A stretch of 64,000 bases of DNA, taken from NCBI GenBank assembly GCA_944389235.1, contig CALXLO010000001.1, positions 26,956 through 90,955 of the forward strand, given 5' to 3'. Positions within the stretch are counted from its first letter, which is position 1. Every line of letters starts with the position of its first letter. The notes under the pieces are model-generated. The model worked only from the letters and a program-made list of their open reading frames with translations. It had not been told where the DNA came from and did not search any database. Origin of the DNA: an uncultured Alphaproteobacteria bacterium (lineage in GTDB: Bacteria > Pseudomonadota > Alphaproteobacteria > Rs-D84). Made by a program: the position numbers and the translations under genes. Below, in pieces: positions 46,340 through 54,128 of the stretch.

Positions 46340-46422
46340 CGCTGATAACATGCCTGTGCCGGTATGACGGGCGTGTTAGTATTACTGACATATTATGCAC
46401 ACAACTGGCAATTGTTGCGATC

Positions 46423-48159
46423 TTATTTACCCGTGTGATATGTTTGACCGTTGTATTCCAGGTTTATCCCATCACCCGAACCAGATTCCAATATGCCATA
46501 ACACATACCGCCATTATAACCAATGTGTATCGCCGGCGACGATAACTTTTCACTATATAATGGTATTACTAACCCACTGCCTGTACGCAATGTTGTAAAC
46601 CCCAGCCCACATAACTGGCTGCATACACCGTCTGAACTTTGATTATACCCATCATTACACACAGTCGTATATTCACAATTATTCCCATAATACACAGTAC
46701 TGCTGACTGGAACACGATTGCCACCAGTGATACTTTGTTCACTACATGTCGCATAACACCCACTTTGACCAATATTACCACCCGCAGAATTTGGATATGC
46801 ATCTGGACATGCGGGACATGTTGAACCACTGATATAATGGTCTGCACTGGCTGATGTAGGTTTATCCAGTTCTTGTTGGCAGTTTGCGTTGTTTGTACTG
46901 CATCCGCTTTTTATTGTGCCATCGCCAGTACCAGCACTGTTGGAATACGCAACATAATTACATGCTGACCCAGAACATGCTTTACACGATACACTGGCAC
47001 ACCCACTGGGCTTAGCACATGCTGTTTGACCTCCAGTCCATGCACGCGATTTGGTATTACTATAACACGATGTTATGCCACCGGTATTACCATCTGGTGA
47101 ATTTGGGTACCCCGATGGACAGGATTTGCAACTATTACCATCTTTGTAATACCCTGCTGCACATGATGTAATGGTTAATGTACCACCACTGCACGAGCCC
47201 CATGAACTGCACCCGGTGCATTGCGACGAACTGGTTGCACCGATTGGTCCACTGGTATGATTACCCGTACACTGTTGTTTAGCACCACTGATTGTACCTG
47301 CGTATGCATGTGCATTACTTAATTCCGTGCTGGTTGGATTGCGTGAACATGATTGTGATAAGTCTGTCGCACTGATACTGGTGCAAGATAGACACCTGTT
47401 ACCAGCACTGAGACCATTTAAGAAATACCCTGCTGCACATGATGTAATGGTTAATGTACCACCACTGCACGAACCCCATGAACTGCACCCAGTACATTGC
47501 GACGCACTGATTGCACCGATTGGTCCACTGGTATGATTACCAGTACATTGTTGTGTTCCACCTGTCATTGTACCAGCGTATGCATGTGCATTACTTAATT
47601 CCGTGCTGGTTGGACTGCGTGAACATGATTGTGATAAGTCCGTCGCACTGACACCTGTACATGCCGGACAGCTGCTGCCGCTTTTATAATATCCTGATTT
47701 ACAAGATATGCTGATTGAGCATGTTGATGCCGGTGCATCGCACGAACCACCGTAATAGTATTTTCCACTGGTTGATGAACTGCCGTGGGTACAGGTCGCA
47801 TTAGCTGGGCATCTCTGCCGTGTACATGCCCTGGTGCAGGATTTATAGCATTGGGTTATGACTTTTGACCCCTCGGCAGAATTTGGATAGTCAGACGGGC
47901 ATGGTTTGCAAATAACTGTGCCGCCACCATAACTGCCCGCAGGGCAGATGACAAGAATAGGGGGACGGTCACCACCACACAAAGTTTTGCATAAGCTTTG
48001 GGATGCCGCGCAACATATCGGAGAACCAAGTTCAACTGGGCATGCAACAGTACCTGCAGGACAACCATCACCGCCGACTTGGGTGATTGCATATAATGGA
48101 AATGTTGATAATGCACTAAACAAAAACACCAAAACCAAACGGTGGTTTAGATTCGGCAT
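46423..48159 (-). CDS. Secreted cysteine-rich repeat protein with ephrin-receptor-like/furin-like (GCC2_GCC3, VSP-like) CxxCPxGY repeats
   Basis: Signal peptide (LVLVFLFSALSTFPLYA) and about 52 Cys in 578 aa (hand count). Repeated motifs are CKPCPSDYPNSAEGSKVITQCY, CKSCPSGYPNSPDGNTGGITSCY, CPACPDAYPNSAGGNIGQSGCY and C-AAGY(F/Y)-x5-7-C-x-SC. The track ORF starts at TTG 48162; the first ATG is at 48159. No purine-rich SD is visible. Confidence 0.75.
   Translation of the reverse strand: MPNLNHRLVLVFLFSALSTFPLYAITQVGGDGCPAGTVACPVELGSPICCAASQSLCKTLCGGDRPPILVICPAGSYGGGTVICKPCPSDYPNSAEGSKVITQCYKSCTRACTRQRCPANATCTHGSSSTSGKYYYGGSCDAPASTCSISISCKSGYYKSGSSCPACTGVSATDLSQSCSRSPTSTELSNAHAYAGTMTGGTQQCTGNHTSGPIGAISASQCTGCSSWGSCSGGTLTITSCAAGYFLNGLSAGNRCLSCTSISATDLSQSCSRNPTSTELSNAHAYAGTISGAKQQCTGNHTSGPIGATSSSQCTGCSSWGSCSGGTLTITSCAAGYYKDGNSCKSCPSGYPNSPDGNTGGITSCYSNTKSRAWTGGQTACAKPSGCASVSCKACSGSACNYVAYSNSAGTGDGTIKSGCSTNNANCQQELDKPTSASADHYISGSTCPACPDAYPNSAGGNIGQSGCYATCSEQSITGGNRVPVSSTVYYGNNCEYTTVCNDGYNQSSDGVCSQLCGLGFTTLRTGSGLVIPLYSEKLSSPAIHIGYNGGMCYGILESGSGDGINLEYNGQTYHTGK
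47150..47662 (-). repeat. In-frame tandem duplication (276-bp period, 2 copies, roughly 90% identical) inside the Cys-rich gene
   Basis: taccctgctgcacatgatgtaatggttaatgtaccaccactgcacga... occurs at 47150 and again at 47426. It encodes two 92-aa modules (...ATDLSQSCSR(S/N)PTSTELSNAHAYAGT...CTGNHTSGPIGA...CTGCSSWGSCSGGTLTITSCAAGY...). Confidence 0.9.
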
Positions 48160-48245
48160 CAATGGGGATAAAAATGTGGCGGATTTCTGGGGGTGGGATG
48201 TTTAAAAATATGCCGAATCTAAACCACCCTTTAGATTCGGCATGA
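48141..48245 (-). promoter_or_regulatory. Three-copy start-codon element (19-nt inverted repeat plus 14-bp hairpin) in the leader of the Cys-rich gene
   Basis: Copy A, at 48141-48159 on the minus strand, is ATGCCGAATCTAAACCACC (the gene's start codon plus 5.3 codons). Copy B, at 48210-48228, carries the same 19-mer on the plus strand. Copy C, at 48230-48243 on the minus strand, is ATGCCGAATCTAAA. B and C form a perfect 14-bp hairpin with a 6-nt loop, and B is also a 19/19 complement of A. Confidence 0.6.
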
Positions 48246-48549
48246 ATTTTTATGTTCTATACTGCGAAAATCTGGGATTTTTTAATAAAAATTTTGCGTA
48301 AATTTTACGCTTTATTGCATTTTTATTTTTCGTCGCGGAAATATATTTGTTTTTATTGAAAATTCCCCCCGACGCTGTTGATTCCCCAGGTTCTCACACC
48401 CGTATCGCAATATTACTTGCGACATATTTACTTTATATTTTTAGACCGCTTATTGCAACAGAAAAAAACTGCCCGTAACATATTATGACGGCGGGGCGTG
48501 ATATTATACCCCATTGTTGGGGTTCGTGGTTGTTTGTGTTGCTGAAACC

Positions 48550-52808: not shown

Positions 52809-53094
52809 AGTGTTTTGCAACGCGTTTTCTAAATTCATTACTGGGGCGAAATGATGCCACACGACGCGCAGTAATAACCGCCGGTTCGCCAGTTTTTGGA
52901 TTGCGACCCATACGCTGAGTTTTTTGCAGAATCTTGAAACTGCCGAATCCGGCGAATTTTACTTCTTCACCATGAATCAAAGATTCACTGATTTCTTCAA
53001 ATACAATATCAACAAGTTTATATGCATCAGCCGTGGTTAACCCATAGCGTTCGCGTAATCTGTTTGCAAAATCATTTCTGGTTATTGTTGCCAT
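52807..53094 (-). CDS. ihfA: Integration host factor subunit alpha
   Basis: 95 aa with ...GFGSFKILQKTQRMGRNPKTGEPAVITARRVASFRPS..., which is the HU/IHF fold with the alpha-type ITARRV-FRP signature. It lies downstream of fabH, as in many Alphaproteobacteria. Confidence 0.9.
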   Translation of the reverse strand: MATITRNDFANRLRERYGLTTADAYKLVDIVFEEISESLIHGEEVKFAGFGSFKILQKTQRMGRNPKTGEPAVITARRVASFRPSNEFRKRVAKH

Positions 53095-53097
53095 TTT

Positions 53098-54036
53098 TTA
53101 CACCCTGATTAATGCGGCACCCCATGTCAGTCCACTGCCAAATGCAGGGTACAAGACAAGTTGCCCATGTTTTATTATATTATTATCAAATGCGTACGAT
53201 AATGCAAGTACCCCAGACGCACCACTGGTATTTGCGTGCTTGTCAACTGTTACCAAAATTTTTTCCAGCGGAAACCCCAGTCGCTGGGCACCGCTGTGGA
53301 TTATGCGCAAATTTGCCTGGTGCGGGACAATCCAATCAACATTATCGGCGGTAATGCCTGCGTGTTCCATAATATAATTGGCGGCATCTGGCATCAACGA
53401 CACTGCTTTTTTATATGTTTCTGGGCCGTTCATTATTATACGGTGGTCTGGTGAACCGTGCAGCATATCAAATTCGCCGCCATCAGCCATAACCACGGTA
53501 TCAATTATACCAGAATAGCTGGACGAAGAATATTCAAATATTAATGCACCGGCACCGTCGCCAAATAAAACTGCTGTGCTGCGTTCGTTCCAGTCAATAA
53601 AACGCGACATTTTTTCAGCGCCAATCAGCATTATGCGATGATGTATCCCCGCAGTAAAAAATGCGCGTGCGCAATGCAGCGCATAAATATATCCAGTACA
53701 TGCACCGCGCACATCAAAAGCCGGCGCGTTATTTGTTGCCCCCATTCGTCCCAAGACCTGGACCCCGACTGACGGAAAATCCAGTTCAGGTGTTGTTGTT
53801 GCAACAATTACCATATCAATATCGTTTATTGTTATGCCTGCGTTTTTTAACGCGCGTTGTGCGGCGATGGTTGCCATATCAACAACGGTTTCGTCATCGC
53901 GTGCAAAGTGGCGTTCACGCATACCTGTGCGTTGGACAATCCATTCATCAGATGTATCCATAATTTTTTCAAAATCTTGGTTGGTCATAACCCGTTCAGG
54001 CAAATAAGAACCATATCCAATTAATCTGCTGCCCAT
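53098..54036 (-). CDS. fabH: 3-oxoacyl-ACP synthase III
   Basis: MGSRLIGYGSYLPERVMTNQDFEKIMDTSDEWIVQRTGMRERH..., with active-site Cys (GACTGYIYAL), His (VPHQANLRI) and Asn (ANTSGAS). The track ORF extends to 54096. Confidence 0.93.
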   Translation of the reverse strand: MGSRLIGYGSYLPERVMTNQDFEKIMDTSDEWIVQRTGMRERHFARDDETVVDMATIAAQRALKNAGITINDIDMVIVATTTPELDFPSVGVQVLGRMGATNNAPAFDVRGACTGYIYALHCARAFFTAGIHHRIMLIGAEKMSRFIDWNERSTAVLFGDGAGALIFEYSSSSYSGIIDTVVMADGGEFDMLHGSPDHRIIMNGPETYKKAVSLMPDAANYIMEHAGITADNVDWIVPHQANLRIIHSGAQRLGFPLEKILVTVDKHANTSGASGVLALSYAFDNNIIKHGQLVLYPAFGSGLTWGAALIRV

Positions 54037-54128
54037 TATACCTTTCCCTTTATTTTTTTGCGGTGATATTATACAAGCCGTCATTACAACTTGCAATATT
54101 AAAATCTGTGAATAAAATATAATTCACT

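Follow-up and report, generated by a model that had tools for sequence, protein, structure and literature searches.

The broken rpmF-plsX-fabH operon of Candidatus Enterousia and the probably rearrangement-prone region behind plsX

In most bacteria, the described lipid-synthesis cluster has the gene order rpmF-plsX-fabH(-fabD-fabG-acpP-fabF), and many Alphaproteobacteria have the arrangement plsX-fabH-ihfA. The locus considered here resembles both and departs from both. It lies in a stretch of 64,000 nucleotides (hereafter the window, to which coordinates refer unless a contig is named) from an uncultured alphaproteobacterium (GenBank assembly GCA_944389235.1, contig CALXLO010000001.1, positions 26,956 to 90,955 of the forward strand), and it comprises the zone that follows plsX, in particular positions 46340 to 54128. 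As in the described clusters, rpmF and plsX are intact and tightly linked, and fabH and ihfA are still adjacent and co-oriented. In contrast to these clusters, the fabH-ihfA pair of Candidatus Enterousia is detached, has a promoter-like site of its own, lies on either strand and at a variable distance, and is divergently paired with a tRNA-Arg gene and a gene for a MerC-like membrane protein. In the window, three genes for exported proteins stand between plsX and this pair; they encode a Cys-rich repeat (Cys-repeat) protein, a lipoprotein of the phospholipase D superfamily (PLD) and an Arg/Ser/Thr-rich Cys protein (RST).

The genome that contains the window measures 823 kb and is 97.9% complete. 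Its named relatives are metagenome-assembled genomes of Candidatus Enterousia from animal guts, a member of the reduced-genome alphaproteobacterial order Rs-D84 (PMC12306168). An earlier, sequence-only reading of the stretch had proposed that a host-interaction islet, bounded by the tRNA-Arg gene, was placed inside a core lipid-synthesis operon by an insertion plus inversion. The gene map of that reading is confirmed by open reading frames (ORFs), Pfam, NCBIfam and ARAGORN, which find rpmF, plsX, the three exported-protein genes, ihfA, fabH and the tRNA-Arg gene where it had placed them. The history that it suggested has to be revised: the zone is probably not an islet, and shows instead how a rearrangement-prone region of long standing, which followed an operon break at the base of the genus, looks at present in one species.

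The plsX/fabH break and the fate of fabH

The window proteins were mapped on 80 Enterousia species loci, each extending 10 kb to either side of plsX. In the out-group, drawn from other families of the order, plsX lies next to fabH and collinear with it in each of the 11 genomes in which both genes were found, and in one of them (G022) rpmF, plsX and fabH are tightly packed, with spacers of 10-14 nt. Since these families keep the arrangement, a collinear rpmF-plsX-fabH operon is the ancestral state, and the separation of the two genes in Enterousia is real and derived. The segment rpoC-rpmF-plsX is unchanged in 80 of 80 Enterousia loci, and in none of the 80 is fabH found directly after plsX; among the loci with fabH within 10 kb of plsX, six carry it on the minus strand and five on the plus strand. 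The break is therefore as old as the genus, and an insertion plus inversion is not an event of this lineage. The single recent event that had been proposed is contradicted both by these loci and by the diversity of arrangements described below.

The fabH product contains both KAS III domains, ACP_syn_III and ACP_syn_III_C, with scores above the cut-off. A promoter-like site (TTGCAA-17-TATAAT) is present upstream of fabH at 54096-54068, and the true start of the gene is therefore likely to be the ATG at 54039, which gives a product beginning with MGSRLIGYG…. When a concatenated query of FabF, FabD, ACP, FabH, IhfA and the MerC-like protein was compared with 41 Enterousia genomes, FabF was found in 41 and FabD in nearly all, whereas fabH was found in 21, and a separate search gave the same picture. 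Judged by this distribution, the detached gene for FabH, the initiating condensing enzyme, can be dispensed with in about half of the species sampled, with FabF and FabD retained, and fabH is not the strictly core gene that its place in a core operon had implied. Its loss fits relaxed selection on the old operon. Where fabH is gone, ihfA, the tRNA-Arg gene and the MerC-like gene stay linked, and in several species just ~180-700 nt remain between ihfA and the tRNA/MerC side. An apparent fabH remnant, ridden with stop codons, was seen in one genome (G006).

Gene modules, their permutation and their borders

Four recurring units follow plsX: module A (mraZ/orf110), module B (PLD/RST), module C (fabH-ihfA/tRNA-Arg-MerC-like) and module D (OMP/Cys462, for an outer-membrane-like protein and a Cys-containing secreted protein); their coordinates are collected in Table 1. 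Module B is found head to head in at least 10 congeners and in most of the 80 species loci, and the four genes of module C travel together in other species. A joint query for module D was matched in 38 of 41 genomes; both halves are present in most of 40 congeners and are head to head wherever both were found, with the pair sited elsewhere in most species. Module A adjoins plsX in many species, in either orientation. The mraZ/orf110 divergent pair was observed genus-wide, often as the first unit after plsX, and orf110 belongs to no recognised family.

On the left, rpoB-rpoC-rpmF-plsX forms an anchor that stays the same in all species loci examined, and pepO-hemW on the opposite strand is a recurrent right neighbour. 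Between plsX and, in many species, pepO-hemW, the modules occur in nearly every order and orientation: the 50 loci with at least 9 kb downstream of plsX show 32 arrangements, counting order and orientation, and even sister tips of an rpoC+plsX tree differ in the arrangement of modules. The complete circular sister genome OZ007020.1, searched with a concatenate of 45 window proteins (2970 aa), is perfectly collinear with the window over 24 consecutive genes at 11.5-46.3 kb. After plsX it carries an oleate-hydratase-like gene, then modules C, B and A, the gene for the Pmp protein and pepO, and its module D lies ~80 kb off, at 92-94 kb. Relative to this genome, a hand count for the single pair gives four breakpoints for the 11 kb after plsX, as opposed to two for the other 53 kb of the window (Fisher one-sided p = 0.011), which supports a local, if modest, rearrangement hotspot after plsX.

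At each module border in the window, genes converge on a bidirectional terminator. Sites resembling terminators number about twice those of shuffled sequence (27 found, 14.2 +/- 3.6 expected). The hairpin type of 52778-52805, AAAAA-ACCGGCA(A/T)(A/T)TGCCGGT-TTTTT, recurs at gene ends across the genome, at roughly 10 or more sites, among them C1:53951, several on contig C5, C12:14363 and C21:5919. A repeat search of the window yielded neither a long repeat nor a shared site at the borders of modules A-D, where just terminator palindromes and matches of chance size occur, and no inverted repeats beyond chance length link these borders, the longest being the individual terminator palindromes. The recurrent ACCGGCA(A/T)(A/T)TGCCGGT hairpin was also seen to give rise to false joints and loose ends in the mapping of reads or contigs. 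A candidate deletion variant joining 48480 to 52778 in two DNA runs was rejected, as it represents a paralogous locus on contig C12 that shares a 30-mer and the common terminator hairpin.

These features suggest how the pattern may have arisen. After the rpmF-plsX-fabH operon was broken at the base of Candidatus Enterousia, the space between the anchors would have been held by self-sufficient divergent gene pairs, each with its own control region and closed by bidirectional terminators. Inverting or moving such a unit would leave expression intact; rearrangements with breakpoints in the convergent spacers would survive for this reason, hence the many permutations between species. The exchange itself could have been homologous, at dispersed repeats, or illegitimate, at hairpins. 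Recombination at either kind of site, combined with purifying selection against the breaking of transcription units, would yield the observed pattern, and the locus would then offer a natural example in which the unit of neutral rearrangement is a terminator-bounded divergent gene pair.

Within the species the order of modules is stable. Eight independent species assemblies, at 98.5-100% identity, have one order, orf110-mraZ-Cys462-OMP-MerC-fabH-ihfA-RST-PLD, and no opposite-strand joints were reported in DNA-like runs (four across 14 kb and four over 45.9-48.9 kb), with the proviso that contigs drop rare variants. As far as contig data can show, the modules have therefore been shuffled over evolutionary time and not by ongoing switching.

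The two genes of module B are not orphans. PLD has a PLDc_2 domain in two stretches (best 329-469), a PLDc match at 421-445 and both HxK motifs (HNKLFIVD and HSKTIVFD), as expected of the two-HKD superfamily. Its sole match among PDB sequences is a phospholipase (E 3e-7). PLD resembles the cardiolipin synthases ClsA/ClsB and bacterial phospholipases D in its two PLDc_2 domains and HxK motifs. Its best NCBIfam matches are cardiolipin synthase models; it differs from ClsA/ClsB in scoring far under the curated cut-offs (101 against 290 bits for TIGR04265, 78 against 281 for ClsB), in its lipoprotein signal (…LIGC) and in having no transmembrane anchor. By its motifs it is best described as a putative two-HKD PLD-superfamily enzyme, either synthase or hydrolase. 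Of 18 congeners, 13 have PLD, and it also occurs in one further family (52% identity).

RST consists of a strongly conserved signal peptide, a disordered basic Ser/Thr-rich region of ~220 residues and a helical Cys-rich domain with 16 cysteines invariant across 22 orthologues. Its AlphaFold model is weak (mean pLDDT 53; 60-85 in the C-terminal domain), and no match was obtained in Pfam, NCBIfam, PDB sequences or PDB folds, the best Foldseek hits (E 1.2) being generic coiled coils. RST orthologues adjoin PLD in most species. The genome carries 12 RST paralogs, all with signal peptides and together occupying 3.8% of the DNA, and each congener carries 10-16; members of the family were noted to be 720-1100 aa long, the 12 genes lying on contigs C1, C2, C3, C13, C18 and C19. 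All three genes between plsX and ihfA that had been called orphans encode exported products, as described; PLD and RST belong to the core of the genus. Orthologues throughout the clade, which had been named as the sign of an ancient arrangement, are found for these two genes and not for the strain-variable Cys-repeat gene. In other species, a GalE-like epimerase gene was observed between RST and PLD and a GuaC/IMPDH-family gene (MKIYEQTELDFKDVL…) beside module B, both of which are absent from this genome (loci L055, L056, L058, L059, L065, L068, L095, L108, L115, L118, between or beside RST and PLD; L041, L047-L049, L053, L056, L060, L062, L075, L095).

To the left of rpmF lies rpoC, and to the right of orf110 follow genes for a Pmp-repeat protein, pepO and hemW. 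The mraZ gene of module A is solitary, with neither rsmH nor a division cluster. Metatranscriptome contigs give thin and patchy coverage of all genes in the region.

Table 1. Features of the zone behind plsX (window coordinates; C with a number denotes a contig of the same genome)
Feature	Position	Strand	Remarks
rpmF	45041-45190	+	ORF; with plsX, the kept proximal half of the ancestral operon and fixed left anchor
plsX	45272-46339	+	Pfam FA_synthesis, E 6e-94
Strain-variable cassette	46360-48488	-	gene 46423-48159/48162, ~325-nt repeated leader and short 3' flank
Left direct-repeat copy	46363-46385		TATGAC-GGGCGTGTTAGTATTAC; alignment of cassette ends
Cys-repeat gene, 3' (C-terminal domain) part, dispersed repeat	46420-46809	-	95% nt identity to C17, 88-89% to C12 and C6
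Cys-repeat gene, 579-aa Cys-rich signal-peptide protein	46423-48162	-	48159 with ATG start (578 aa)
In-frame 276-nt tandem duplication in Cys-repeat gene	47137-47679	-	267 nt, 88% identical, spacing 276; blastn 91% over 242 nt
Repeated leader of Cys-repeat gene	48129-48476	-	contains hairpin 48210-48243
Right direct-repeat copy	48484-48509		TATGACGGCGGGGCGTGATATTATAC; alignment of cassette ends
Module B	48550-52501		PLD (-) and RST (+) head to head; shared 205-nt control region
PLD, 526-aa lipoprotein, two PLD/HKD domains	48550-50130	-	PLDc_2, E 2e-34
RST, 721/746-aa Arg/Ser/Thr-rich Cys protein	50336(50261)-52501	+	ORF
Module boundary	52506-52805		two bidirectional terminator hairpins, 52506-52536 and 52778-52805, with AT-rich spacer between
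Module C	52807-54559		ihfA and fabH (-) divergent from tRNA-Arg(CCU) and MerC-like gene (+); fabH-ihfA is the split-off distal half of the ancestral operon
ihfA, IHF/HU-family gene	52807-53094	-	Pfam
fabH	ORF 53098-54096, likely start 54039	-	ACP_syn_III E 2e-25, ACP_syn_III_C E 1e-30
tRNA-Arg(CCU)	54129-54204	+	ARAGORN; Rfam 65 bits
MerC/MerT-like membrane protein	54215-54559	+	module C member
Module D	54594-57061		330-aa outer-membrane-like protein (OMP, -) divergent from 462-aa Cys-containing secreted protein (Cys462, +)
Palindromic terminator	57058-57091		left of module A
mraZ	57094-57540	-	Pfam MraZ
orf110, 110-aa ORF	57929-58261	+	ORF; divergent from mraZ
Bidirectional terminator hairpins	52506-52536, 52778-52805, 54567-54590, 57058-57091, 58336-58358

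The strain-variable Cys-repeat cassette

In this stretch, only the Cys-repeat gene with its leader behaves as an insertion. Contigs from two runs of one study (X25 and X26) join position 46359 to 48489 and skip 2129 nt, so that plsX abuts PLD, with 162-255 nt on each side of the joint. These runs are labelled 'METAGENOMIC RNA-Seq', yet their coverage is flat, at ~29x, over genes and spacers, and they behave like DNA. The occupied allele is flanked by an imperfect direct repeat of 23-26 nt, TATGAC(GGCG)GGGCGTG.TA.TATTAC, found at just these two places in the genome; both an occupied and an empty allele, as well as a direct repeat at both ends of the former, are thus on record. The earlier statement that no direct repeat of the tRNA 3' end is visible is upheld for the whole genome, with the correction that a direct repeat of another kind is present at this pair of sites, which flanks the Cys-repeat cassette only and not the whole 7.8 kb. 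The junction at 48488/48489 has at least three different left neighbours among strains: the Cys-repeat leader in the window, the plsX spacer in X25 and X26, and an unrelated sequence ending in …TTCCACCACTGCAATATGTGC in X7 and X36 (compare X35); loose ends at 48489 occur in runs X7, X35 and X36. The sister genome has no Cys-repeat orthologue at this place.

The protein itself has no full orthologue in relatives, and family, PDB-sequence and fold searches gave no significant match; the 578-aa form starting at ATG has an exact protein match, while the 579-aa ORF form gave none. Its C-terminal 130 residues (80-86% identity) and its internal repeats are common to other genes of the same genome. The leader at 48152-48476 recurs at the end of contig C4 with 99.4% identity, on C12 with 94% and on C6 with 83%, and in L122, L124 and L125, scaffolds of the same species, the gene that follows the leader is a mosaic of C12-, C1-, C16- and C6-like segments. 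The Cys-repeat genes therefore form a family of dispersed copies with near-identical ends, divergent middles and mosaic alleles across strains. This 2.1-kb surface-protein cassette in the plsX/PLD spacer would be the truly mobile piece of the region, and the ends of the family, 250-390 bp long and 83-99% identical, would be natural substrates for homologous recombination and gene conversion.

Several observations concern the leader, which, as an Rfam scan of the window found three tRNAs and no further match, belongs to no Rfam family. It contains a hairpin, ATGCCGAATCTAAA-N6-TTTAGATTCGGCAT, ~85 nt upstream of a start codon that carries the same 14-mer (MPNLN…). Copies of the element were seen at nine or more loci, preceding several different signal-peptide genes (48129-48243 in the window; C2:103684, C3:112-215, C6:28241-28345, C7:25383-25481, C10:26431-26534, C12:14664, C17:3521-3639, C5:39968-40086 and the end of C4). 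Co-variation links the 6-nt loop to codons 6-7 of the ORF (GGGTGG/CCACCG, CCACCG/CGGTCG, GGTAGG/CCTAGG), and the 3' arm and loop are therefore able to pair over 19-20 nt with the start region. In the window, the 3' arm and loop of the hairpin at 48210-48243 are complementary to the start-codon region at 48141-48159, and minimum-free-energy folds of the leader prefer the long-range helix between arm and start region. On this folding model, the hairpin is a candidate for a translational switch or, possibly, for a site of recombination. In a metatranscriptome contig from run X29, position 48141 is linked to 48229 on the other strand, across the leader's inverted repeat of 19 nt; an inversion, a fold-back during reverse transcription or a paralogous locus could account for this joint.

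Competing explanations and comparison with known systems

Several points weigh against a long-lived rearrangement-prone region. The hotspot statistic comes from one hand-counted genome pair, other synteny breaks lie nearby in the window (~6.5 and ~11.5 kb), and quite different housekeeping blocks follow plsX in some species; the genus may be generally fluid rather than this zone special. The recombination mechanism is putative, and the repeated terminator hairpins measure just ~29 nt. RST is without a family, PDB or fold match, and any role of the exported proteins is likewise putative. The interior of the Cys-repeat gene is spanned by just this assembly and one 99.98%-identical scaffold. In addition, L122, a 98.9%-identical strain scaffold (ERZ16268158 scaffold_548), joins the PLD side to plsY-dprA-dnaA instead of plsX: at 9581-17581 it shows a fragmented, mosaic Cys-repeat region followed by plsY, dprA and dnaA (contig C6), an arrangement that reflects either a mis-join caused by the repeats or a large inversion, close to the origin, between paralogs of the Cys-repeat gene.

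Programmed site-specific shuffling of the modules, or at least of the Cys-repeat leader, by small serine recombinases of the invertase/resolvase type, in a chromosomal multiple-inversion system for phase or antigenic variation, is unlikely, although for the leader it is conceivable in view of the many small serine recombinases and the X29 joint. Several features would agree with it. The same 0.82-Mb genome encodes five Resolvase-domain genes (three intact ORFs of ~200 aa, one without a clean ORF and one of 491 aa) and three tyrosine recombinases, the modules occur in both orientations across species, the leader has inverted repeats of 19-20 nt around a 50-nt spacer at no fewer than nine loci, and the X29 contig joins opposite strands. 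On the other side, conserved inverted repeats are missing from the borders of modules A-D, the module order is the same in eight samples, DNA-like runs yield no opposite-strand joints (rare variants being dropped by contigs), and the sole such joint stems from an RNA run, where a fold-back in reverse transcription or a paralogous locus may be its source. Known invertase substrates (Hin/Gin) are, moreover, far longer than an invertible segment of 50 nt. As for the recombinase genes themselves, the serine-type ones were located at C14:282-1103, C2:98954-99583, C11:147-593 (no clean ORF), C2:124721-125317 and C7:9-1484, four of them at contig ends, a striking count for so small a genome, and a phage-type integrase gene (C2:119405-120643) heads a probable integrated element at C2:119-125 kb.

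It is also rather improbable that the plsX/PLD spacer, perhaps even the whole plsX-pepO interval, is a dedicated recombination site with unrecognised, possibly recombinase-assisted shuffling of modules at terminator hairpins. If it were, the small serine recombinases would be candidates for the activity, and a coupling to the hairpin leader in front of at least nine secreted-protein genes would be possible.

An assembly artefact, in which the contig would be chimeric across the Cys-repeat gene and plsX and the PLD…fabH block would not be neighbours, is very unlikely. The leader and the 3' domain, repeated at the end of C4 (99.4% identity) and on C17 (95%), respectively, exceed short reads in length, unitigs and most same-species contigs stop inside the Cys-repeat leader and the 3' repeats, and L122 continues from the PLD side into plsY-dprA-dnaA. 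However, both the end of plsX (46.3 kb) and the fabH/tRNA junction (54.1 kb), which had been named as possible chimeric points, are crossed by independent assemblies and unitigs; at the latter, one sample has a 4.3-kb contig across the junction, and other samples have overlapping contigs. A second assembly, scaffold_117, has the same plsX/Cys-repeat/PLD join as the window, and because the empty-site contigs of X25 and X26 as well as species L043 and L085 have plsX abutting PLD, the plsX-PLD neighbourhood is not an artefact.

A single, recent, horizontally acquired host-interaction islet beside tRNA-Arg(CCU), with an inversion that flipped fabH-ihfA, has become highly improbable. It would account for three exported proteins with no or weak family assignment, for a tRNA gene at one end and for an order unlike the ancestral operon. 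Against it, PLD and RST are genus-wide and conserved as a pair, and the plsX/fabH break is common to 80 loci. No second copy of the 5' or 3' end of the tRNA-Arg gene (17-25 nt) was found in the genome with probes allowing up to 3 mismatches for 20-25 nt and 1 for 17 nt, so the att-like partial copies that the islet would call for are missing. Because there is no such copy and the tRNA gene always accompanies fabH, ihfA and the MerC-like gene, it is not an attachment site; it is a passenger of module C, not the boundary that it had been taken for. No integrase, transposase or other recombinase domain was detected by Pfam or NCBIfam in any ORF of 46.3-57.1 kb, in agreement with the sequence-only reading, and the Phage_integrase and Resolvase genes of the genome are all on contigs other than that of the window. 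A compositional island is not apparent from the GC profile either: G+C ranges over 34-52% in the stretch 46340-54128, as compared with ~43-47% in the flanks, with swings that track gene content (the low-complexity RST region and AT-rich spacers) and no block-wise shift.

Plasticity associated with the terminus (dif region) or the origin is scarcely credible, since the cumulative GC skew rises steadily over the whole 127-kb contig, with a plateau only over the mixed-strand zone and no extremum, even though strand bias shifts around 46-58 kb (plus genes to the left, minus genes to the right) and one strain scaffold puts dnaA ~7 kb beyond the PLD side.

If the zone is indeed a rearrangement-prone region of long standing, it holds a lesson for annotation: a broken core operon beside a tRNA gene need not be an acquired island. 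We infer that the exported proteins serve contact with host or partner cells, for which PLD/RST, OMP/Cys462, the RST family and the recombining Cys-repeat family would be the best candidates in Enterousia. Overall, the locus adds a further case to kinds of genome change that are already known, with little surprise for the specialist and a mechanism that is deduced from the pattern.

Its relation to these known kinds can be specified. With tRNA-associated genomic islands it shares exported-protein genes beside a tRNA gene; it differs from them in having neither integrase nor att repeat, in its non-deviant composition, in the genus-wide conservation of its genes and in that the tRNA gene goes with the fabH module and not with the genes for exported proteins. 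Patchy presence with an empty site, typical of islands, is seen solely for the 2.1-kb Cys-repeat cassette and not for the 7.8-kb stretch. Shufflons and other multiple-inversion systems likewise combine a given set of segments in many different ways, varying order and orientation, whereas the variation here is between species, with no recombination sites at the borders and no dedicated recombinase gene adjacent. A likeness of the Cys-repeat gene to eukaryotic Cys-rich repeats rests solely on a faint Pfam Ephrin_rec_like match of one paralog. As in variable surface-protein families, such as Mycoplasma vsp/vsa, Anaplasma msp2 and the Giardia-type CXXC-rich proteins, a conserved 5' leader with signal peptide and a C-terminal domain occur in dispersed copies, and variable Cys-rich repeats, tandem duplication, mosaic structure and presence or absence among strains are found. 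These families differ from the Cys-repeat genes in their organisation into an expression site and silent cassettes, which is not evident here, where each copy has its own leader.

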